Of a DNA stretch of 64,000 nucleotides, positions 5,198 to 50,870 are shown piece after piece. Positions within the stretch are counted from its first letter, which is position 1; each line of letters opens with the position of its first letter. Below the pieces are notes generated by a model. The model made no database searches, was not told the origin of the DNA, and saw only the letters and a program-made list of their open reading frames with translations. The position numbers and the translations under genes were made by a program. The stretch is from Felis catus (Eukaryota), in contig NC_058368.1 of NCBI RefSeq assembly GCF_018350175.1, positions 25,918,001-25,982,000 of the forward strand, written 5' to 3'.

Positions 5198-6723
5198 GTC
5201 CATGGAGACATTTTGGTAGGATGGCTTCATTTTAAGAAGAGGACTTTATGTATCTATAGGAGATATTCTAGCCCACTAATTAAGAATTGGGATTTAGAGT
5301 CAAATAGCCCAGATTTAAATTTGATCCAACTGTTGTATAATTTTGTTACCTGAAGGAAAAGTAATTTAGATTCTCTGAATTTTGATTTCATCACCTGTAA
5401 TGAATAGTGAAAACATATGACACCTCCTGAGAATTAAACAAGCTTATACTTTTAGAGAGCATTATAGTCAACTGTGTTGTGCTTTTCAGTACCTCTCTTT
5501 GGGTCTTAGAAGGAAATAATAGTTTGGCATCTCATCATTCAAACAATGAGGTGAACAGTCTCCATACTAATATTGCTGTAGATTTCTCTTTAGTCCACTA
5601 GTAATTTGTATATAAAACTGTGTATTTTTCTTTTCCCTTATTTAATTCATGAGAAGAGATAATAAAATAGCTTAAAATTGACAAGGAGCCGTTTTGGGGG
5701 CTGTGGTGCTGATTAGTATGGATGGGTGGAGGAGAGGGGATTTAACTTCATACACCAGCAGGTGGTAGTTCCGTGTTCACATGGACGTATACCCCATATC
5801 CTACTAGCATGTTTCATTTTCCCCTGGGCTGACTTGGTGAATGTTAAATGCTGTCTTGAAACATTTCATATTGGTTGTGGGTTGAGCTGGTTCATTATTA
5901 CATAGACAGGTTACTTCCTGTTTTCATTCTTCAGTCAGGCTTTCTTTTTATTGGTTGGTTAGAAGAGATTTAATACACTTTTAGAGCTGCCAAAAACACA
6001 TGTAATAGGCAGTGTCCTGAGGCTACTGCCAGGTTCACTGGGCTATGATCAAACACTTTACCTTTGGCAGGCTCTTTGAGACTTGCTCAATTCTCTGGTT
6101 TAACTTGTTTACTTAAGTTCTTAGAAGTTCTAAATAATAAAAACTTCGGGTGAATTCATTTCAGTGTAACTCTTTGAGTAATCCTTTATGTATAAAGTGT
6201 TTTAAATATTACTTGTGCCCTCAAAACCAGTCTTAAAAACAAAAGAGGTAGATTTTTTTTTCATAGTTTACTTATTCCTAAATCTAATTTTTACAGTCAA
6301 CCATCCCAATCTAGTGAAGTTAAATAAATTTCTGGCCTTGGTCTTTCCACTGCCTTAATGAAATTAATTATTAGCACAGTAGCAAAAATGAAGTAAAATA
6401 ATTAATAGCAAAGACTGTATAATTAATTTAGAGAAGGCCCAAATTCCATAACCTGTGAAGCATGGTAAGTAACTGAGCTCTTTGTAACTTCCATTGACCC
6501 TCTGTCTTCTCTTTGGGGCAGATAGCTTCTTTGACCATGAAGGTTTCAAACCAAGGGACATTTTTAGGTTTCCTGAATTTTGTTTTTGGGGAGGATTAGG
6601 GAAATGATCAGAAATTGCTTCCTTTTTATTAACATCTGAGGGAGTGGGGGGCTGTCAGCTTTCTTAAATATGGTGGTGGATGTTTCTGGTTGACTGTTTC
6701 CCTTCTTTCCTGTTCTGTTTCAG

Positions 6724-6840
6724 AGTCTGATAAAGAGGAGAAACCACAGAGTACCGTCATACCTAAGGAAGTAACACCAGCCCTGTGCTCACTAATGAGC
6801 AGCTATGGCAGTCTCTCAGGGTCAGAGAGTGAGCCAGAAG
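6724..6840 (+). CDS. NUFIP1: NUFIP1 internal coding exon (third from last), 117 nt, phase 1-1
   Basis: Pyrimidine tract then TTTCAG| acceptor (6723) and GAAG|GTAAGT donor (6841). Encodes (E)SDKEEKPQSTVIPKEVTPALCSLMSSYGSLSGSESEPE, matching the recalled NUFIP1 C-terminal region. Confidence 0.95.
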
Positions 6841-7209
6841 GTAAGTTGTGGCTTCAGTTGTTACAGGCGGTTTGTTTTGTTTTGGTGCTTTTTGAATTTG
6901 GTGTATACCGTGCATCAGTAGCATCCTTTCATGTGTGTGTTTCTGAGGGCAGGATGTGTCAAGTATATTCTTTATTTAATCTTCACTTTTTTCATCTGAT
7001 TCAGAAGTGAAGTTAGCAGAGGATAAAGGAAAACTGGAGAAATGAGGAAATGTATTGTTAGCCTGGGAGAAAAAGGCAAAAATAATATAATGACAGAAGA
7101 GAAAGAGAAATATTCCATTAAGGAAATAAAAATTCTAAAAGATATGACAAAGAAAGTTAATTTCTTTTTTTTTTACTCTCAAGAACACTTGTCTTAACAT
7201 GCTTATTCA

Positions 7210-7428
7210 GGGATGCCTGGGTAGGTCAGTCAGTTAAGCATCCGACTCTTGGTTTCGGCTCAGGTCATGATCTCACAGTTTGTGAGTTTGAGTCCTGTTT
7301 CGGGCTCTGCCTGGAGCCTGCCTGGGTTTCTCTCACCTTCTCTCTCTGCCCCTCCCTGGTGTGCATGCTCACTCGCTCGCTCGCTCTTTCTCTCTCAAAA
7401 TAAATAAACTTTAAAAAGAAAAAAAAAA
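7210..7428 (+). mobile_element. Can-SINE
   Basis: tRNA-derived head, CT-rich tract, AATAAA and A-tail. Confidence 0.9.
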
Positions 7429-9817
7429 TATTTCGCACCTTTGGTAGGTAGAGAGAGGTCATTTGTGACCAAATGGATAATAGAATTCCTTAGATGTGTA
7501 TGGAGCATTGTTCTTTACAGAGCGCATTTATGTAAACTGCTCATTTGAGGAACACAGTAACTCTGTACTTGGGGTTGAATTAGCCTATGTGTTTTAAAGA
7601 CTGGACGAAGTGGAATCCTTGACTGTTCTTTCTGAGAAGTCAGTGATGTACAGGACACATGTCTAACCTTTAAAGATGTTGACAAGCCAGCTTAATCTAG
7701 CATCCTTTTTTAGGGCCACCTAAAAGAGTTGTGAGTAGGTTATTGATCGTCGTAGTGTTGCAGTTCTAAACCCAGGGTTCATATATAGATAATCAGCAGA
7801 TGCTTACTGAGTAAGCCCGTGTCCTTCTGTTGTGGAACCCTGGCTCTGCATGGTAAATTTATTTGGGCTTTACCATCCATGAGAGAATTCATTTGTGTGT
7901 GTCTCTGGACAAGATGTGTAATCACAGTAGGAGCTATACCGAAGATGAGAATATAGGGTCTACAAGTGAGTGTGTAGAAAGAAGGGAAGATTTGAGTGTA
8001 ATTGGATGAAGAAGGCAGCACTTTCAATATTAATTAGGTTACAGGTAATCACTGTTTGTATAGTTGGAAGATGTTGAAGGAGAAAGAGTTGGGCTTCAAT
8101 ATGAAGGATAATGTTTAGATGTATCCGTAACATAGGGACTTTTTCTTCTTTTTTAATGGACCACGATTTACTATGGTAGCTGGTTAAAAGCTACTTGAAT
8201 TTTGATATATAAACTACTTTGGCTTTATCAGAGTATTTCTTAACAGATGGTTGCCTCTTCTTATTTTTATTTTTACTTTAAGGAAAAGTATTTATTTCTT
8301 TACTCTTGTTTCCAATACACTGATACGATTATGGAGTTATTCTTTAAACACATATTATATTTCCTGCTTATCGCTCTTATTTATGACAGGTGATAGCAAT
8401 GAAAGCTGTTACCAGATTACTGAATCTCATAAAAACAAGCTGCACTAATGCTCTCTTCTCTCTCTCTCTTAAGATAAAACATTTGATACTTTCATTCTCA
8501 TGTCTTCATTTTGAGGCTGCCACCATCTTCCAGTTAAAGGAAGAAAGGAAACTGGGAGGTCCCACTCCTTCATTTATAGAAACTTAAATTTAAAGAAGAC
8601 AAGTTTGTGAAGTTAGTATGTGTCAGAGCTGATATAAAGCCTAGGTTTAGGGACTTAAAAATCTAAAAAAGTCAACTATATTCCTTTCATTATAGTCATG
8701 CTCTGTGTTCCTGAACAGAAATGCATAGCCTTTTCTTAGAGATAATAGAAGATATCATCTATTAAAAGATACATTTGATTTTATATGAACTTATTTTTAC
8801 TGATTGTCTAAAATTCCCTGCCTAAAGGAAAAAGACCTTGCTTCACATTCCTAAGGCTTAAGAATTATTTTCTGTAGTTTGAATTCAGCTTTATTGTACA
8901 TAGTCGCCCAGGTCACTAGCAAGTTTCCAACTTTCATGGTTAATTTTGGGCCACAGGATAGAATATTGACACAGAGGGACTTCGGAAGAAGTAAACCAAA
9001 GAAATAAAGGGGGCTTTCGCTGAACCATGAAATAGCATCTAGAAGGCTGCTTATTCAAGTGGATTCTAAATGGAGAGGAGTAGTCTGATTCATCACAGAT
9101 TTTAACAATTGTATCATCATAATTAAGATCGGTCTCAACTTAGGAATTAATACAAAGGTGTGGAGAGGATCTTAAACATGAATAGTGCTTTTCCAGAAAG
9201 AGTTTTAAACAAGGAAAGGGTCCCTCAAGAAACATTGAAGCAAAACAAGAGGCTGTGCTTGGCTCCGAATCATTAAGGCTGTCCGAATCATTAAGATATA
9301 CATAGGAAAGAAAATTTCAATGAGTAATGTTTCCAAGTGGGTTAGTTTGATATCTGTCCTGGGTTTTGCATGTTAGCTTTTTGTTTTTGTTTTGCCGTGT
9401 TAGAAGTTAAGTGCAGTTTTATAGCTCTTCAAAATTGTTTTTTCAAACTGGTTTGGGCTATGACCGGTGGTCCTCTAAACTGAAAACTCATTTTAAAAGG
9501 CCACAAACCAAAAAAGTATGATTTATAGGTTTGAAAAACTTGAACGGTTATGTTTTAAATTCATTTGGATTGATAAATATTGCATTAAAATATGATACTA
9601 AGCTGGGAAATGTTGTGAGCCTCAAGAAAAACATAACTGGTCCCAGTTCCTCATTCCTTAGCGGAAGATTGACAGTGTGAGCTCCGGTCCATTTGACTTT
9701 CGTGTTCCTGAATTGGAAGAGCAATACTTGGAGGGGAAGGAAATAATAGAAAATCGTGCCCTTTCTGCCATTTGTTATTATTCCCATAGTTTTGAACTCT
9801 ATCAACCACTTTGAATT

Positions 9818-10710
9818 CTTTTTTTAAAAGTTATTTATATATTTATTTATTTTTAATGTTTATTTAAAAAATTTTTTTAATGTTTATTTATCTTTTTTTT
9901 TTAACGTTTATTTATTTTGGGGACAGAGAGAGACAGAGCATGAATGGGTGAGGGGCAGAGAGAGAGGGAGACACAGAATCGGAAGCAGGCTCCAGGCTCT
10001 GAGCCATCAGCCCAGAGCCCGACGCGGGGCTCGAACTCACGGTCTGTGAGATCATGACCTGAGCTGAAGTCGGACGCTTAACTGACTGAGCCACCCGGGC
10101 GCCCCTGTTTATTTATCTTTGAGAGAGGGAGAGACAGAGTGCAAGCTGGGGAGGGGCAGAGAGAGAGAGGGGGAGATGCAGAATCCAAAGCAGGCTGTAG
10201 GCTCCAGGCTCCTAGGTGTCCACACAGAGCCCGACGCGGGGCTCAAACTCACTAACGGTGAGCTCATGACCTGAGCCGAAGTCGGATGCTCAACCAGTTG
10301 AGCCACCCACGCGCCCCAAATGTTTATTTATTTTTGAGAGAGAGAGAAAGCAGAGCATGAGCAGGGGCAGGGAGGGGCAGAGAGAGAGAGAGGGAGACAG
10401 AGAACTCGAAGCAGGCTCCAGGCTCTGAGCTGTCAGCAGAGAGCCTGATGCGGGGCTCAAACTCACAAACTGTGAGATCATGACCTGAGCCGAAATCGGA
10501 TGCTCAATCGACTAAGCCACCAAGGTGCCCCTACTTATTTATTTTTAGAGAGAGAGAGAGAGAGAGAGCAAGTGAGCATGCAAGTGGGGGTGGAGCAGAG
10601 AGAGAGGGAGAGAGACTCTCAAACAGGCTCTGTGCTGTCAGTGGGGAGCCTGACACGGGGCTCAAACCCACACGCCATGAAATCGTGACCTGAGCCAAAA
10701 TCAAGGTGCC
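9818..10710 (-). mobile_element. Stack of four nested Can-SINEs
   Basis: Four SINE bodies with 5' ends near 10105, 10317, 10531 and 10710, linked by nested TSDs (see findings). Confidence 0.92.
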
Positions 10711-10784
10711 AACACCTTGGGGCAAGTACTTCCTTGGTAACTGAGATTTAATGTTATTCCTGTTTGTGCAAGGCAAGGACTGGC

Positions 10785-11400
10785 TACAGTTTAAGGTTGG
10801 TTTCTCGTAGACATTATGTAATTGGTCTTGTGTTTTTCTCCCCAGTCTAACCATTCACCCTTTTAAGTGTGACGTTTAAATTATTTGTATATATGGTAAT
10901 TGATTTGGCTTGTTTCTTTTTGTCTCAGTTGTTTTTTGTTCTCTTTTCCTTCTTTTCCTGCCTTTGCATTTATCTTGTCTTATTTTTAGGGTAGTGCAAA
11001 TATGGGTTTATTAGTTGAACCTCTTTTTTATTTTTTAGGAATTGGTCTAGAGTTTATAGTATGCATCTTCATTCAACTTGTTGCCATATAGTTTCAATGA
11101 TATTGCACCACTTCATAGATAGTTTAAGAATTTTATAGCAATATACTTACACTTTCCTCTTCCCTTCCTTAGTGCTATTGTTATCATGGGTTTTCCGAGA
11201 GATGTTATAAATCCCCCATACACTGTTATTATTTTGGCTTTGAATAAACAGTTATCTTTAAAACCTTTTGCAAATGAGAAAACATGTCTTTTGTATTTAT
11301 CCACATATTGACGATTTCTGACACTCTTCATTTCTTTGTGTAGATCCAGGTCTCCATCTGGTATTATTTCCTTCATAGGGATCACTTTCTGTAGCTCTTT
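10785..11400 (-). mobile_element. Old L1/HAL1-like fragment
   Basis: Minus-strand text …ATAATACCAGATGGAGACCTGGATCTACACAAAGAAATGAAGAG… typical of the ORF1 end of old L1M elements. Confidence 0.55.
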
Positions 11401-11609
11401 ATGGTAATCTCTTCAATTCTTGGCAAATTATATTCCCACCTTGAAAAATATTGTGCTATATTATAAATGCCTAGTTTTTATTACTAAGTAGCCAGTATTA
11501 TGGCTGCTGGGGGGGGGGGGAATTATTGACTTTTTTTTTTTTTAATTATTGTAAGTTTACCAGGTTTTTTTTGTTATTTATTTTTGTATTTTTTGCTCAT
11601 CACATTTAG

Positions 11610-11827
11610 AAGCTCCCATTAAGACTGAAGCAGACGTTCTGGTGGAAGATGAGGTTCTTCATAGTGAAACTCCTAAGAAACCAAGTCAAGATGTTAAAGT
11701 GACTGTTAGAAAGTATGAGAGCCAAAAGAAAAGTTTTAAAAAGACAAACCCTAAGAGGAGAAAAGATTATCACAACTATCAAACATTATTTGAACCAAGA
11801 ACACACCATCCATATCTCCTGGAAATG
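11610..11827 (+). CDS. NUFIP1: NUFIP1 penultimate coding exon, 218 nt
   Basis: TTTAG| acceptor (11609) and ATG|GTAAAT donor (11828). In frame with the previous exon: (E)APIKTEADVLVEDEV...KDYHNYQTLFEPRTHHPYLLEM. Confidence 0.95.
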
Positions 11828-13149
11828 GTAAATGACTGTTCTTTACATTGTAATCTTTGTGTTTTTCTCAGATGATGAAGACAGAGCCACTGGGTCTGTG
11901 TGTGGGTTCACGATGCGTGTTTTTTAAGGTCACCAACAACATTTGCTCCCTGACGACTCAACTGTGTATCTTAACTTTGAAGCTTCATTTCACATATAGC
12001 TGACGTCTGGTAAATGTGTAGAATAGTTACACTTTTCAAAACTGCTTAAAATAAAAGAATCTAGATTTAACTGATTGGCAAGGAAATATGTATTGAGGTG
12101 TGCTGACATTGTTAAAGTTTTCATTGAAAGCACAGATAAATGCAGTGGCAGACTAAAGGGAGAAAGAGGTTTTTATGCATTTATTTTGTGCGTTATTGAC
12201 TTTATTCTCAGCGTGATATGCTGAAAAATCTTATTTCTTCAACAAATTTTAAAAGAGGAAGCATCACATCTTCTGATTCTAAGTAATGGACATGAAGCTA
12301 TTCATTGACCCAGGACTTTCATGCTAAGAGTGATAGAAAATATTCCAAATTTTTTACTAGAGTTGTAGAACTGTTGACATTGTTGAACTGTTGTGTGAAA
12401 GTCTGTTTTTGCTCCGTCAGGTAAGTGCTTATGCTGTAGCTAAAGTGTTCTGTGCCTGCACTCTTTGAGGTGTTACATGTAGACACTGTTGCTTCTTCTT
12501 AAAATTGATGTGAAATGTAAATTTCAGTGTTTATATAAATTGCATTTTCAAAATCTTACCTTATAAGTAGTAAATTAAATCCTCTCTCCACTGAACATTT
12601 GTTCCTCTGTGATGTTTCTAGACTACACTAATGACATCAGAAAAGAAATTGAGTGATCTTCCTCTTTTCTACAAATCACATATGATTCCTTGGTTATGTG
12701 TTTCTTCTAAAAATCAGGGATTTTTAGATTTCTTTTGATTACAATAAGCACAAAAATGAAAAGTTGTAACATTCCAGGAATGTTGGGATTTTTTACTGCT
12801 GGTTTCATTATTACTGTATTTATATATCTGCTTATCAGTTTCTATACTGTTTGTAGGTTTGGTTTTAGGAGGGTCCTCTTTGACAGGATTTGTAGATTAA
12901 AGAATTGCAGACTTTTAAACCTATATTTCCTGTCCTTTGTTAGATACTCCTAGAGAGGACCCCAAATGTGAGCATTGGTGCTGTTTAAAAAGCTAGATAG
13001 TCTTGGTATAAGTTAAAAGGAAATGTTCCTGCATTATTTTTTAACAAATAATTTAAATATAATAATATTTTAGATTGTATTTCTTGGATATATTTTATTG
13101 ACCAGCTAATCATTTTATTGTTTTTGTTTTGTTTTGTTTTTTGTTTTAG

Positions 13150-13266
13150 CTTTTAGCTCCAGACATTCGACATGAAAGAAATGTTATTTTGCAGTGTGTT
13201 CGGTACATCATCAAAAATGACTTTTTTGGACTTAATACTAATTCTGCAAAAACTAAAGATGTATAG
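13150..13266 (+). CDS. NUFIP1: NUFIP1 last coding exon (ZNHIT3/Hit1-binding C-terminus)
   Basis: T-rich tract then TTTTAG| (13149). Translates LLAPDIRHERNVILQCVRYIIKNDFFGLNTNSAKTKDV-TAG, the conserved NUFIP1/Rsa1 C-terminus. Too short for the ORF track. Confidence 0.96.
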   Translation, partial: LLAPDIRHERNVILQCVRYIIKNDFFGLNTNSAKTKDV

Positions 13267-17526: not shown

Positions 17527-20308
17527 ATAGTGGCTCTCAAACTTCAGTGGGCATCCAGATTGCAGGTCCCCACCTCTGAAGATTATAATTAAGGAGGTTG
17601 GGATGTGGCCTGTGAATTTGCATTTCTCCCTCCCCCCTTTATGTATTTTTTAAATTTACATCGTTAGCATATAGTGCAACAATGATTTCAGGGGTAGATT
17701 CCTTAATGCCCCTTACCCATTTAGCCCAACCCCCCTCCCACAACCCCTCCAGTAACCCTCTGTTTGTTCTCCATATTTAAGAGTCTCTTATGTTTTGTCC
17801 CCCTCCCTGTTTTTCTATTATTTTTGCTTCCCTTCCCTTGTGTGCATCTGTTCTGTGTCTTAAAGTCCTCATATGAGTGAAGTCATATGATATTTGTCTT
17901 TCTCTGACTGATTTCACTTAGCATAATACCCTCTGGTTCCATTCACATGGTTGCAAATGGCAAGATTTCATTCTTTTTGATTGCTGAGTAATACTCCATC
18001 GTATATATATACACCACATTTTCTTTATCCGTTCATCCATTGATGGACATTTGGGCTCTTTCCATACCTTGGCTATTGCTGATAGTGCTGCTATAAACAG
18101 TGGGGTGCATGTGCCCCTTCGAAACAGCACACCTGTATCCCTTGGATAAATGCATAGTAGTGTAACTGCTGGGTCGTAGGGTAGTTCTATTTTTAATTTT
18201 TTGAGGAACCTCCATACTGTTTTCCAGAGTGATGGTCAGTTTTTGTTGAATCTAATGGGAGTCCTCTGTGCTTCTTGGATTTTGATGTCTGTGTCTTTCC
18301 CCAGGTTAGGAAAGTTTTCCGCTATGATTTGCTCACATAACCCTTCTACCCCTTTTTCTCTCTCTTCATCTTCTGGAACTCCTATGATTCTGATGTTGTT
18401 CCTTTTTAATGAGTTGCTGATTTCTCTAATTCTTAAATCGTGCTCTTTTGCCTTAATCTCCCTCTTTTTTCCTGCCTCATTATTCTCCATAAGTTTGTCT
18501 TCTGTATTGCTCATTTGCTGCTCTGCCTTATCCATCCTTGCCGTGGCATCCATTTGAGATTGGAGCTCAGTTACAGCATTTTTTATTTCATCCTGACTAG
18601 CTTTTACTTCTTTTATCTCTGCAGAAAGGGATTCTAATGTATTTTCAACCCCAGCTGGTATTCTTAATATCGTGATTGTAAATTCTGGTTCAGACGTCTT
18701 GCTGGCTTGCTTAAGTCCCTGGCTGTTGTTTCTTCCTGCTCTTTCTTTTGGGGGGAATTCCTTCATTTCATCATTTTGAAGGGAGAAAAGGAATAAGGTA
18801 AAAAAAAAAAAACCTAAAATTAAGAAATGTTTAAAAATCAAATAAATGATGCTAGATCCTAGGTGTATTTTGGTCTGGTTGTTGAAAGGAGCTCGATAGA
18901 TTAGAGAAAAAAGGGAAAGATAAGAAAAAAAAAGTTTGAAAATTTGAAAAAATGAATACAATGAAATAGAACAAAATGAAAAGATGGAAGTAAAATAGAG
19001 TTTGGAAAATTTACAAAATAAAAAATATAGTAAAAAATTAAAAAATATTTTTAATAATTGAAAATAAAAATAAATTTTTTCTTTCTGTATTCAAGAAAAA
19101 GAAAAAAAAATTGAATAGATGGACCAGCAAACAGACTGAAATGTAATTGAAATTACATCGTTTTCCCCTAGAGGTCAAACTATGAAGCACGTTATAGTCT
19201 GTAAACTAAGCAGGCAGAGAGACTTGCGGTGTTCCTGAAGAGCGAGGGTGGCCCAGTTGGGCGGGGCTTAGTGTAATGGCTCCATTCTCCACTAGGTGGC
19301 GCTGCTTAGCTTATTGAGGTGGATTGTTGCGGCGCTTGTCGGTCCCTATGCGCGCGCGCCGAGGGAAAATGGCGTGACCCAACTACCCAGTCTCTAGTAT
19401 GGGAACTCTGTTCTCTGGGCTCAGCCATCCGCACCCGTCCTTTGGCTCCGGCTTCCATCCACTCCCCGCCTTTACACTGTCTGTGGCCCAGCCGTCAGGC
19501 TGCCAGGCGGCACCTCCCTCCTGAGCTTTATCTCCCATGCGGCCGTTTCCCGACCCCTCACTTCTGAGGGACTGTGGCTTTGACCTGCTCAGACCTTCTG
19601 GGGGAGGGTCTCACCAAGCAACCGGCCGGGTGCCGGCTGTACCCAGGAACATTTTGCAGGACGTGTGGCACGGCCTCTACCAGATGTCCTCCCAAGCAGG
19701 TGAACCGCCTCTGCCCGTGGCCTGAGAACCCTTGAACTTCACTCTGCTCCTGGGGATTCGCTCTTCCCACCAGAGCTCCACCAGGTAAAGAGCTGCAGAG
19801 TTTCAGCCTCTGCGCTCCCCCTGTTTATAGAGTCTTAGTGGAGTTTAAACCCTCTCCTTTCTCCGTTTTTTGTTCAGTCCCTGCGGCTGAAGTTTCCACT
19901 TTTCCACTTTCTCTCCAGCTGCCTTTGTGTGTGTGTGGGGGGGGGGGGGTTGCTTTTCCCGTACTCTCCACCCCCCCCCCACCCGTCTCCCTCCTCTCTC
20001 CACAAGCAAAAACAGTTCCCTGACCTCCGTGGCTTCACTCTCCCCCAGTTCACCTCTCCGCGCCATGTACCTGCTGAGTTCTGTGGTTCACGTTGTGCAG
20101 GTTGTTGTGTTAATCCTCGAATCAGTTTTCTAGGTGTGCAGGATGGTTTAGTGTTGATCTGGCTGTATTTCAGGGACTGGAGCTGCAAAAAAGACTTCTA
20201 TGCTGTTCCGCCATTTGGGCCCCTCCCCTCTGAATTTGCATTTCTAAAAACTAGTTTATAGGCGATGCTGATGAGGTTTGTCTGGAGGACCACATTTGAG
20301 GATCATTT
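17527..20308. mobile_element. MER5-like hAT-Charlie element split by the L1 (halves ~17527-17627 and ~20231-20308)
   Basis: AGTGGCTCTCAAACTT…GAATTTGCATTTCT|AA…GATGCTGATG…GACCACATTTGAG resembles MER5A. Confidence 0.65.
17628..20230 (-). mobile_element. Carnivore L1 with both termini but a large internal deletion
   Basis: Perfect 15-bp TSD TGAATTTGCATTTCT (17613-17627 / 20231-20245). 5' end GAGGGGAGGGGCCCAAATGGCGG, GC-rich 5' UTR, decayed ORF1 from 18774 (…LKRNNIRIIGVPE…IIAENFPNLGK…), joined near 18230 to the ORF2 C-terminus (…CTPLFIAALSAIAKVWKEPKCPS…) and 3' UTR. Confidence 0.92.
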
Positions 20309-21268: not shown

Positions 21269-22066
21269 AAGATAACATAGTTGAGATTGTTCTGTATATT
21301 TCATTTTGTATCTTATTGCAAGTGCGGTAGAGCTCGGCGTTACTATTGCTCCCAGGGGAGAGGAAGATAGGAAAGTCCTGCTGAAGGTACAGACCAGGGC
21401 AGGGGGGTTTTGCCACGTATTTAATAAGCATTTGAAAGTTGTCCTGTGGACGGACTTTTTCTGGTAACTATTTCCCTGATACGCAAGGCTGCAATGGACT
21501 GAATGGTCATTCTGGGAGAGGAGAAGCCACTTCAACTGTGATGGAAGCGGGAGCTTCAGAGGGCGAACTTGTTCCAGAACCTTCTCAGAGGGCAGACTTG
21601 TTCTAGAACCTTCTCCTGTTAGCATAGCTGGAGGCTTCTTGGGAGTGGCGTAGGAAACGATGATTATTTCAAAATTGAGAGAGGAGAAAATCAGTACATG
21701 TGAGTATATGGAGGAGTAAAGAAGACAGATATTAAGAGCATATGGAAAAAAAAAAGCCTGAAAAAAAAGACCCTAGATTGAAATTTCTGTTCTTTACAGC
21801 TGTTGCCCTAGACTATGCCCTGCCATGCAGTGCATCCTATGAAACACCAGCTGTAGCTGGTGTTTGGAACACTTTCTCAGTCTTCTATTGATCTTCTGTA
21901 CCGGCTGATTTAAATGTCTCTTTGTACACCCCAAGGACAACCTACAGTGTCCACTTGAGAACTTTTCTTAGGGGGTGTGGTTTCCAATTAGTGGTTTCTG
22001 GCAGTCTTTGTCTCTGGCTATTGGAGGACAATGCCACCATCTCCTGGGTCAAATATTTGCAGTTTA

Positions 22067-22984: not shown

Positions 22985-23699
22985 CATTGGTTCTCAAAGT
23001 GTGGCATCAGACCTCTGGGAGTGTCCAAGACCCTTTTGAGGGTGTGTGAAATGGAAACTGTTTTCATAATTCTAGGACATTAGTTGCCTTTACCATGCTC
23101 ATTCTTTTATGAATGTGTAGAGTTTTCCAAAGCTATATGATATGTGATGCTGTCTGGGAGGTGTCCTGGGAGTATGTTATGTGATGCATACTGGGAGGTG
23201 TCCTTGGCAATTCTTGTGTTGTCTAGAATTTTCTAAAGTGGTAGTTTGAGAATAAACATACATGAGTTTTTAGAGCTTAACTCAGGTTGTTCTCAGTACT
23301 CTTACTAAGCTGTCTTTGGTTATGCCTGTTAATAGTCTTTGTAACCTTGTAATTATTGAATTAATGCCATCAATAAATTGTTATTTTGAAATGCTAATGA
23401 TTTGGAAAACTTTAAAAATGATGCCACTCAGCTCACTCATAGTTGTTTTGCAGTAGAAAATAGAGATTAAAAAATGTTATTTATGTTAGTATGTAGTTTA
23501 TTGTTTTTAATTGAATTAATGTTTAAATTTTAATTTCTAATGCTATGTTTATTAATAAATATAACCCATTTATATATGTTTAAATTTTAATTTCTAATGC
23601 ATATAGCATTATATCAATAAATATAAACCCATATTGGAGATCTTAATTATTTTTAAAAGTGTGAAGGAGTCCTTGGACCAAATGTTTGGGAAGTCACTG
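22985..23699. mobile_element. hAT-Charlie non-autonomous DNA transposon
   Basis: Imperfect terminal inverted repeats CATTGGTTCTCAAA … TTTGGGAAGTCACTG. Confidence 0.6.
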
Positions 23700-28009: not shown

Positions 28010-28920
28010 ACTCAACCATTCTAGGTCCTAGAGAGAAATTGCTGGTGTGGAAACATAAGCAATTCAATTATACAATTAATTATTCTTATGTAAATATATA
28101 TGTTTACATGCAAGTTTCAGATGAATGCTGAGTTCTCCCAGGGTCTCTAGTGTTTCCTTTTTTCTGGACTGTCTTTTCAAGAATGTTTAGCTCTCTGGGC
28201 TCGGACCTAGTTTGTGGCAACATGGCTAAACACAACCAAGAAGGTCAGAATTGCCAATAAATACTGGACCCGTTATGGTACCTCCTTCAGGAAAATGGTG
28301 AAGAAGATTGAAATAAGCCAGCACGCCAAGTACACTTGCTCCTTCTGTGGCAAAACCAAGATGAAAAGACGAGCTCTGGGGATCTGGCGTTGTGGTTCCT
28401 GCATGAAAACCGTAGCAGGTGGTACCTGGACCTACAACACCACTTCTACTGTCACAGTAAAGCCGGCTATCAGGAGACTGAAGGAGTTGAAGGACCAGTA
28501 GAAGCACCACCATTTGAAACGTTGCTTACTTATAATAAATGGGTTAATTGATATAACAATAAACAAAACAACAACAAAAAGAATATATAGCAACTGGCCT
28601 TGAAAGACATACTAGCTCTCTGGAGCACAGGGCAAGCAAACTTACTGCACATTATAAAAAAATTAGATTCCCTAAGCTTAGACTTCCTGTCCTCTAACTC
28701 ACCTCACTGCATGTGCAGGTGTCACCTAGCCCTCTTCTCAGGGTCACGTGAGAACTGGGGCTGACGCCCTGCTGACACTCTGGCTACTACTATTGCCATG
28801 AGTAGAAACCGTTTGTCTCTGATCCAGGAGTTTTGTGTCTTCTGGCATCCATGAAACTGGCTGACCCAAGGCTGGCTCGCTTATGGTCACGGTGACTTGC
28901 GTGTCTCTTCCCTTATGACA
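28010..28920 (+). mobile_element. Old ERV LTR hosting the RPL37A retrocopy
   Basis: LTR-like text (GTCTCTGATCCAGGAG…GTGTCTTCTGGCATCCATGAAACT…TGACA) continues across the retrocopy TSDs; family uncertain. Confidence 0.5.
28192..28578 (+). pseudogene. RPL37A: RPL37A (eL43) processed pseudogene, full length
   Basis: Intronless. 5' UTR CTCTCTGGGCTCGGACCTAG, ATG 28222, 1-nt insertion after codon 4 giving a stop at 28258-28260. The downstream frame reads [40 protein letters not shown]...CGSC...LKELKDQ* (28501). AATAAA 28534, A-rich tail, TSD AAGAATGTTTAGC (28179-28191) / AAGAATATATAGC (28579-28591). Confidence 0.96.
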
Positions 28921-49689: not shown

Positions 49690-50412
49690 TAATATACCTC
49701 AAGAGCCAAAAGCATGTTTCTTCCCCTTACCTGGTAATTCTATTTCCAGAAATCAACATCAAAGGAAGAATCAGAGACGGGCAAAGAAACAGATTTATGA
49801 ACAAGGACAGATTTATGAGCAAGGGTATTTTTCCTTACAGCATCATCCATCACTAAAAATATGTGAGGGGCACCTGGGTAGCTCAGTCAGTTGAGTGTCT
49901 CATTTTGGTTCTGGTCATAATCTCATGGTTCATGAGTTCGAGCCTCTTATCTGGCTCACTGCTCCCAGTGCAGAGCCCCCTTTGGATCCTCTGTCCTCCT
50001 CTCTCTGCCCCTCCCCTACTTGCACTCTCTCAAAAATACATAAAACATTTAAAAAATTTTACCAAAAAATGTGTAAAACGATAAAATGATAAAAATAGCA
50101 GAATGAATGAACAAGTGGTATATCCACATGATGGAATATTGTACAGCTGTTGTTATTTACCGTCAAGATGATTTTATGATACAGAAGAAAGCAGAATCCC
50201 AAACTATATGCATAGTGTGGGTCCAACTTTGTATCACGTATTAATATGTTAATGTAAGTAAACACATGTAAAAACTGGAAAGAAATATGCTAAAAAGTTA
50301 ACAGTGGCTATTTCTAGATGGCAGAATTACAAGTGATATTTTTTCCCTTTACACTTATTTTAATTTTCCAACTTCTTTGAAGTGAGTATATAATTGCTTT
50401 CATAATCACAAA
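49690..50412 (+). mobile_element. Old L1ME-like 3' end interrupted by a Can-SINE (~49867-50064)
   Basis: GTGGTATATCCACATGATGGAATATT and AAAGTTAACAGTGGCTATTTCT motifs of L1ME 3' ends. Confidence 0.6.
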
Positions 50413-50438
50413 CTTTTCCCCCTGAAATAAATCCAGAT

Positions 50439-50552
50439 GGCCCGGGTTCGACTCCCGGTGTGGGAACGCCAAGACTTTTAGGAAAAAGAAAAATCAATTT
50501 AGGCCCTCCTTAACCAGGAGAAGGCTGATGTTTTTAGAAAATGCTATAACCC
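50439..50552 (+). pseudogene. Duplicated tRNA-Glu 3' fragment plus genomic 3' flank (copy of 41664-41777)
   Basis: 114 bp aligned without gaps at offset 8775, with 2 mismatches (50496, 50511). Contains the T-arm/B-box but no A-box or anticodon. Confidence 0.95.
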
Positions 50553-50870
50553 GGAAATCTGTGTTGAGTAGTATGAAAGGTGCTTTCATAGGCTCTCAGA
50601 AACCCTGCAGAAGGGGATTTCAGAGCTCTCCAGCCTTCTGTCAGCCTTTACTGACTGTTCTCACCCTTCAGATTTGGGGTTCTGGGCTGACCCCTGCGGT
50701 GGGTGGGGCCGGCAGCGAAGGGACAAAGCTCCAGGCCCACTATACCAGTCCCTTGTGTCCTCACCCAGGGAGGAATGGTTAGTCCATCTTCTTACCCAGA
50801 AACAAAACTTGGATTGCCCTAGGCCTTGCACAGGAAATGCCAGGATGGTGAGTGGTACGTGACATTCTTT

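Follow-up and report, generated by a model that had tools for sequence, protein, structure and literature searches.

A stretch of about 128 bp in the cat genome repeats the 3′ half of a tRNA-Glu gene together with the DNA that follows it, and we conclude that this copy was probably produced in the germline by a DNA-templated, repair-mediated duplication in which the tRNA gene served as the donor. The copy lies in a 64-kb window, by which we mean the whole stretch of DNA that was analysed, and its features and those of the donor are collected in Table 1. We regard the event as an ordinary local duplication of the repair type, an accident of a sort already described, in which a tRNA gene was the donor.

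The core of the copy (50439-50552) aligns with 41664-41777 on the same strand over 114 bp at an offset of 8775, as the initial annotation had proposed, and the two mismatches are 41721G/50496A, a CpG transition, and 41736A/50511T, with no others. The imperfect homology that had been described beyond each end is also borne out, as the extended local alignment pairs 50433-50560 with 41658-41785 over 128 bp, ungapped, with six mismatches (E = 2e-54). The copy begins at tRNA position 39-45, takes in the 3′-terminal 28-34 nt of the tRNA, and continues through 86-94 nt of flank past two T-tracts, whose positions in the donor (T4 at 41701 and T5 at 41756) had been given correctly. By self-BLAST this is the sole two-copy pair in the window; the donor sequence occurs at one other place there, and one donor-type contig is found among the seven records of run X16. 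No CCA follows the tRNA end of the copy, and no A tail is seen, the longest A run in 50545-50590 being three, so that both absences claimed earlier are upheld. Neither ARAGORN nor Rfam calls a tRNA at the copy, and a full cloverleaf with A- and B-box is therefore not recognized in it. No Rfam family is found (five matches, E 4.8-8.9), the RNA fold of the copy is unremarkable (z = -0.81), and a 118-codon frame that crosses it (50426-50782) has no Pfam match.

Table 1. Features of the donor locus and of the copy, in window coordinates.
Feature	Position	Strand	Description	Basis
CpG island	40900..41620	.	GC 0.62, CpG o/e 0.92; directly upstream of donor tRNA	
Donor tRNA-Glu(TTC)	41620..41691	+	Intact gene	ARAGORN; Rfam RF00005, 62.3 bits, E 4e-11
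Donor gene boxes	41627; 41670	+	A-box-like word at 41627; B-box at 41670	Scan with assumed consensus patterns
Donor segment	41658..41785	+	Final 34 nt of tRNA and 94 nt of 3′ flank	Alignment
Left flank	50065..50432	+	AT-rich, GC 0.30; repeat-derived stretches	
Left copy of candidate target duplications	50420..50433	+		Enumeration of flank repeats
Left junction zone	50433..50438	+	CCAG equal to donor, then 2 mismatches	Alignment
Copy core	50439..50552	+	114 bp, 2 differences (50496, 50511)	Alignment
Orphan B-box	50445..50455	+	GGTTCGACTCC, same as donor's; no upstream A-box	
Right junction zone	50550..50560	+	9/11 bases same as donor 41775-41785; contains right copy of candidate target duplications	

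The donor locus has been left intact, and copying ran from the complete gene to the partial copy. The trailer of the tRNA-Glu up to T4 is only 13 nt long. The gene lies 28 kb downstream of NUFIP1 within the window, an arrangement that we take to be shared by a human tRNA-Glu-TTC gene. No protein gene start was seen at the CpG island upstream of this lone tRNA-Glu, and the island could drive a Pol II transcript across it. The last coding exon of NUFIP1 (about 13150-13263, + strand) matches PDB 5L85 chain B (E = 4.9e-17), and exons near 6.7 and 11.6-11.8 kb, which gave no Pfam or PDB match, are presumably NUFIP1 3′ exons as well (span 6633-13263, + strand).

The window is rich in a SINE of roughly 220 bp, which we assume to be a carnivore/felid tRNA-derived family; about 3.4 head-to-tail SINE copies stand at 9906-10615 (period about 214, 74% matches). 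A feline metagenome is among the runs in which the window sequence is present. Five of the six ARAGORN tRNA calls (SeC and Arg, at 10015, 25275, 30570, 49263 and 62472 on the - strand) are false, falling in multi-copy SINE intervals and being absent from Rfam. An intronless, diverged RPL37A-like frame at 28211-28501 (+ strand; Pfam PF01780, E = 1.4e-38) is probably a processed pseudogene. An L1 remnant at 17918-19090 (- strand) contains an ORF1 piece (PF02994) at a distance of about 300 bp from a second frame, which presumably resembles the ORF2 end and gave no Pfam match; most of the middle of this element seems to be missing. Two-unit tandem duplications occur at 21556-21615, 23519-23632 and 42838-42868, with periods of 29, 57 and 14, respectively.

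The duplication is real. An assembly artefact is so improbable that we set it aside, because all 82 words sampled from 50050-50860 (a fraction of 1.00) are present in 14 of the 24 listed runs; of these, eight may be the source, and six (two studies, organisms A and B) are unflagged as source. Furthermore, one X16 contig is identical to 50050-50444, left junction zone included, while a separate X16 contig carries the donor alleles and the donor 3′ flank, and donor and copy differ at two to six sites. What speaks for an artefact is that no contig from the runs compared reaches 31 letters to either side of a junction at once, the length we required of a bridge, with the contig at 50050-50444 crossing the left junction by fewer than 31 letters. 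The comparison with 50050-50860 covered four of the 24 runs, and its records come from X16 alone (n = 7), the zero counts from X19 and X20 being of a kind that can be false; the small shares of sampled words in X18-X20 are given no weight. None of the seven X16 records aligned to 50050-50860 shows an empty-site junction. Eight metagenome loci retrieved with an 18-base pattern from the right flank were rejected as chance matches, as none aligned to 49-52 kb of the window beyond 18-19 bases.

The ends of the copy carry short homologies that can be read in more than one way. The left junction zone may be either target-derived imperfect microhomology or mutated copy, one of its changes being CpG to TpG, and the right junction zone is likely to be microhomology, with mutated copy as the alternative there too. 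To the left of the core 4 of 6 bases match the donor, which is equalled at 3.1% of window positions, and to its right 6 of 8 match, which is equalled at 0.67%. The left 9-mer is matched at 7/9 or better in 92 places within 10 kb, and the end homology therefore fails to single out the donor. The initial annotation saw no clear target duplication (TSD). Overlapping short candidates do exist: AAATC is repeated perfectly over 5 bp at 50429-50433 and 50555-50559, and CCCTGAAAT (50420-50428) resembles CCCGGAAAT (50550-50558) over 9 bp with one mismatch, at a distance of 4 nt from the start of the insert. With the left flank held fixed, a perfect 5-mer was found with 104 of 3000 random right flanks and a 9-mer with one mismatch with 16 of 3000, frequencies that are suggestive only, as the search zones were picked after the data had been seen. 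A short TSD would in any case not prove retroposition, because 6 of 39 inspected proximal repair duplications carry one (PMC2671141).

The left flank itself presumably resembles an old L1M element at its 3′ end. Four unrelated X16 contigs match 50115-50147 or 50270-50309 with loose ends, which shows that the flank derives from an old interspersed repeat. An L1 3′ transduction by this element was considered and appears untenable: donor and copy share 95-98% identity, whereas the left flank matches its relatives only in patches of 33-40 nt.

We propose that a break occurred at about 50430-50560, possibly staggered so as to leave a target duplication of 5-10 bp, and that one broken end would have annealed, over a short and imperfectly matching stretch, with the tRNA-Glu locus at a distance of 8.8 kb, with the template on the same chromosome, the sister or the homolog. 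About 115-125 nt would then have been synthesised before the new strand rejoined the other end, either in an SDSA-like manner or as a templated insertion of the Pol-theta type. The strongest argument for a local template is that the donor is so near: a random genome-wide insertion would fall this close to its donor with p of about 7e-6 (2.4 Gb assumed), a value on which we also reject retroposition in trans that happened to reach this site. Only general support comes from work on template switching at meiotic breaks (PMC7615360). The microhomology-assisted local repair insertion favoured by the initial annotation is thus the best-supported reading and fits a described class (PMC2671141), but the arguments given for it were weaker than stated. 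In particular, the crossing of two T-tracts had been held against an RNA template, and this does not stand, as human Pol III is reported to read through such tracts often (10.1101/2025.10.17.683076). Counting against the repair reading are the distance of 8.8 kb, which exceeds the 5-kb cutoff of the described proximal class, the candidate TSDs, and two features expected of RNA priming, namely the sense orientation of the copy and the greater extent of its homology at the 3′ side.

These last features would suit a template of RNA acting in cis, where either a read-through pre-tRNA still being synthesised or a transcript made across the locus by Pol II is reverse-transcribed near its gene by L1 ORF2p or Pol theta. 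A broken or nicked target strand would prime internally at the A-rich 41779-41782, and the product, 5′-truncated after about 120 nt, would be tailless and have a short TSD. This account is stronger than the initial annotation allowed, and we nevertheless consider it unlikely. The two flank repeats favour it, with the same reservation about zones chosen post hoc. Tailless retropseudogenes are described as priming internally on 2-18 nt, including unprocessed tRNA and being 5′-truncated in some cases (PMC5322556); human Pol III is reported to pass several terminators, sometimes by hundreds of bases (10.1101/2025.10.17.683076); and experimental templated insertions can be RNA-derived (PMC5110952). 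On the other side, the candidate nick sites (CC/CCCTGAA, CT/GAAATAA, TG/AAATAAA and AT/AAATCCA) compare poorly with the TT/WAAAAWW target, the third and best of them being two mismatches off; the perfect TSD is shorter than the 8-35 nt given for the tailless class (PMC5322556); and the 5′ half of the tRNA is missing. The transcript would also have to extend 17-25 nt past the second terminator, the donors in the RNA-templated experimental system as described are distant (PMC5110952), and DNA repair duplications carry TSDs too (PMC2671141).

Two further origins involve DNA. A free piece of the tRNA gene, such as a flap, a reversed-fork fragment or a small circular fragment, could have been end-joined into a nearby break without strand invasion, which agrees with the intact donor and with copy-paste insertions described in yeast from fragile sites, R-loops and tRNA-proximal DNA (PMC12214859, PMC11724301). 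We give this little credence: the yeast data are reported from mutants or stationary cells with donors genome-wide, and the imperfectly matching 8-11 nt at either end would better suit annealing and synthesis than blunt capture. Still harder to credit is the idea that later deletions trimmed a larger tandem or segmental duplication to these 128 bp. It would account for a local copy on the same strand, but 41000-43000 shows no further homology to the region at 50 kb, nor does 50040-50860 to the donor side, no other two-copy pair exists in the window, and two extra deletions would be required.

The DNA-templated repair reading can be set against the repair-mediated duplications (RDs) of Pace, Sen, Batzer and Feschotte (2009), who described 1,136 two-copy insertions in human (824 with a donor at ≤5 kb; median length 147 bp) and 192 cases in dog (PMC2671141). 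Like these, the copy is a short, same-chromosome, non-tandem repeat of nearby DNA without polyA, and within the window it is one of two copies. Its size and spacing (114-128 bp, offset 8775 bp) lie within the limits used for RDs (≥50 bp, and >50 bp from the donor), and a polyA/T tail of 5 bp or more is absent. RD junctions show microhomology, filler or a short TSD, and factor-binding sites can be copied with them (PMC2671141); among 39 proximal RDs that were inspected, polyA/T was seen in 0, and microhomology, filler and deletion occurred at the breakpoints (PMC2671141). The present case differs in that its donor is 8.8 kb away, past the 5-kb proximal bin, and is a tRNA gene, the word tRNA occurring 0 times in the main text of that paper (PMC2671141). 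According to its authors the distance scarcely exceeds 5 kb, the proximal cutoff being ad hoc; 58 of 882 same-chromosome cases lie beyond it, and some of these they regard as true RDs (PMC2671141). We therefore file the copy as an RD-type event that stands outside the proximal set and belongs with the same-chromosome group beyond 5 kb.

Other known classes fit in part. The doublets of Thomas et al. are likewise short, local, near-identical pairs ascribed to break repair, but as summarized in PMC2671141 the surveys took pairs under about 100 bp, whereas this pair measures 114-128 bp at 95-98% identity. Class 2 templated sequence insertion polymorphisms (TSIPs; Onozawa and Aplan 2016) share with the proposed event the patching of a break, the probable microhomology and the lack of polyA or a polyadenylation signal. 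They are described with distant donors and no TSD (PMC5110952), in contrast to the local donor and possible short TSD of the present copy, of which no empty allele was seen. An A tail and a canonical TTTT/A nick site, as in class 1 TSIPs and tailed L1 retrocopies, are both absent. The tailless retropseudogenes of Noll et al. (2015) resemble the copy in being tRNA-derived, tailless and in sense orientation, with a target-like 3′ end at an A-rich stretch (PMC5322556). The typical examples, though, retain the 5′ end, break off within the tRNA and have a TSD of 8-35 nt at a TT/WAAAAWW target (PMC5322556), whereas here the 5′ half is missing, the copy runs 86-94 nt into the flank, the TSD is 5-9 bp at best, and the copy sits beside its source. 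A near-complete 5′ end with 3′ truncation within the RNA, as their main screen required, is thus not what the copy shows; for rRNA and histone RNA they admitted 5′-truncated forms as well (PMC5322556). Their TSD threshold (PMC5322556) was 8-35 nt at no less than 70% identity, against 9 bp with one mismatch or 5 bp perfect here, and their priming threshold was 2-18 nt of target-RNA complementarity, against 6 of 8 matches past the core here, with those bases either target- or copy-derived.

The copy can be dated roughly. If the clock is set by the mutation rate reported from cat pedigrees, 0.86e-8 per generation at 3.8 years each (10.1101/2021.04.06.438608), an age of 4.4 My (95% range 0.5-16) follows from two differences and one of 12 My (4.4-26) from six, for a rough age of 4-12 My. 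Over this time the copy would have drifted neutrally with CpG decay, and the B-box would be a passenger. The claim that the CpGs are intact holds for the B-box and fails elsewhere, as two of the six donor CpGs in the 128 bp read TG/CA in the copy, which also has one CpG of its own. Assuming a tenfold CpG rate, 1.1-2.5 CpG losses are expected in methylated neutral DNA against the two observed, and a Fisher test shows no significant excess of CpG sites among the differences (p = 0.05, 0.08 or 0.17, depending on the span counted). Under the same assumed rate, the 11 bp of the B-box would be left intact by neutrality with p of 0.45-0.75, so its intactness is no sign of selection, and we infer that the copy is probably neutral.

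The box scan agrees with the annotation that the copy has a perfect B-box and no recognizable A-box: over four assumed consensus patterns, the best A-box word in 50370-50430 has 2-4 mismatches, compared with 0-2 in the source. By these patterns the copy has the sequence hallmark of extra-TFIIIC (ETC) sites, a B-box without an A-box (PMC12409998, PMC3245943). What defines such sites, however, is that TFIIIC has been measured there in the absence of TFIIIB and Pol III, often at an extended B-box (PMC12409998, PMC3245943); the copy is at most a candidate. That the box is functional, binding TFIIIC without Pol III and acting as an insulator or boundary, would be compatible with any origin. In its favour, human tauB is reported to bind the B-box alone with high affinity (10.1101/2023.05.16.540835), the tauB footprint upstream and downstream of the box would be included in the copy, the box is one of three strict GGTTCGANYCC matches in the 64 kb, and ETC sites are described in mammals (PMC12409998, PMC3245943). 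Against it, about 1,865 ETC sites (human K562) and 2,233 (mouse ES) are reported per genome (PMC3245943), whereas this window alone holds 13 GTTCGANNC cores, and the SINE intervals up to 1.4 kb from the copy include four B-box cores. The CpG decay suggests methylated chromatin, with CpG o/e values of 0.37 and 0.19 in the copy flanks. With the box as intact as neutrality predicts, CpGs decaying elsewhere in the copy and SINE cores abundant around it, the proposed ETC or boundary role finds no support, and we hold it to be most doubtful. An approximately 2% sample of the polyA reads of run X24 gave 0 reads on the stretch and is too small to test expression, and the X16 coverage of the copy region may be host DNA and so gives no sign of expression. 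The warning that the copy would confound read mapping is justified for T-arm and trailer reads. It concerns a known general problem, however, with 716 such short tRNA pieces reported outside tRNA space in the human genome (PMC4785646), and here the copy lacks CCA and the trailer is short.

It is conceivable, though in our view a long shot, that active tRNA genes are preferred donors of germline repair duplications in mammals, seeding B-box-only TFIIIC sites within about 10 kb, and that this copy is a young ETC site. Such a preference would possibly arise through an exposed non-template strand or nascent read-through RNA, and in yeast mutants the donors of templated insertions are reported to be over-represented close to tRNA genes and R-loops (PMC12214859, PMC11724301). 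With random donors, 0.02-0.03 tRNA-donor repair duplications are expected per genome (a rough figure, with the dog density extrapolated and the tRNA gene number assumed), so that even one such case is mildly unexpected; a single post hoc case from a very large scan cannot show a donor bias. A literature search on templated insertions, repair-mediated duplications, tRNA genes and R-loops gave no mammalian account of tRNA genes as repair-duplication donors, and the supplementary table of Pace et al. could hold cases.

On its own the copy is of small import, being one more local repair duplication. It can serve as a presence/absence marker in felids, and it calls for a small caution when T-arm and trailer reads of tRNA-Glu are mapped. 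Its weight would grow if tRNA genes proved to be donors more often than expected, or if TFIIIC did bind the orphan box. In that event the donor and copy would form a natural experiment on two questions: whether TFIIIC needs no more than a perfect B-box to bind in mammalian chromatin, and whether local repair in the germline can use nascent RNA as its template.
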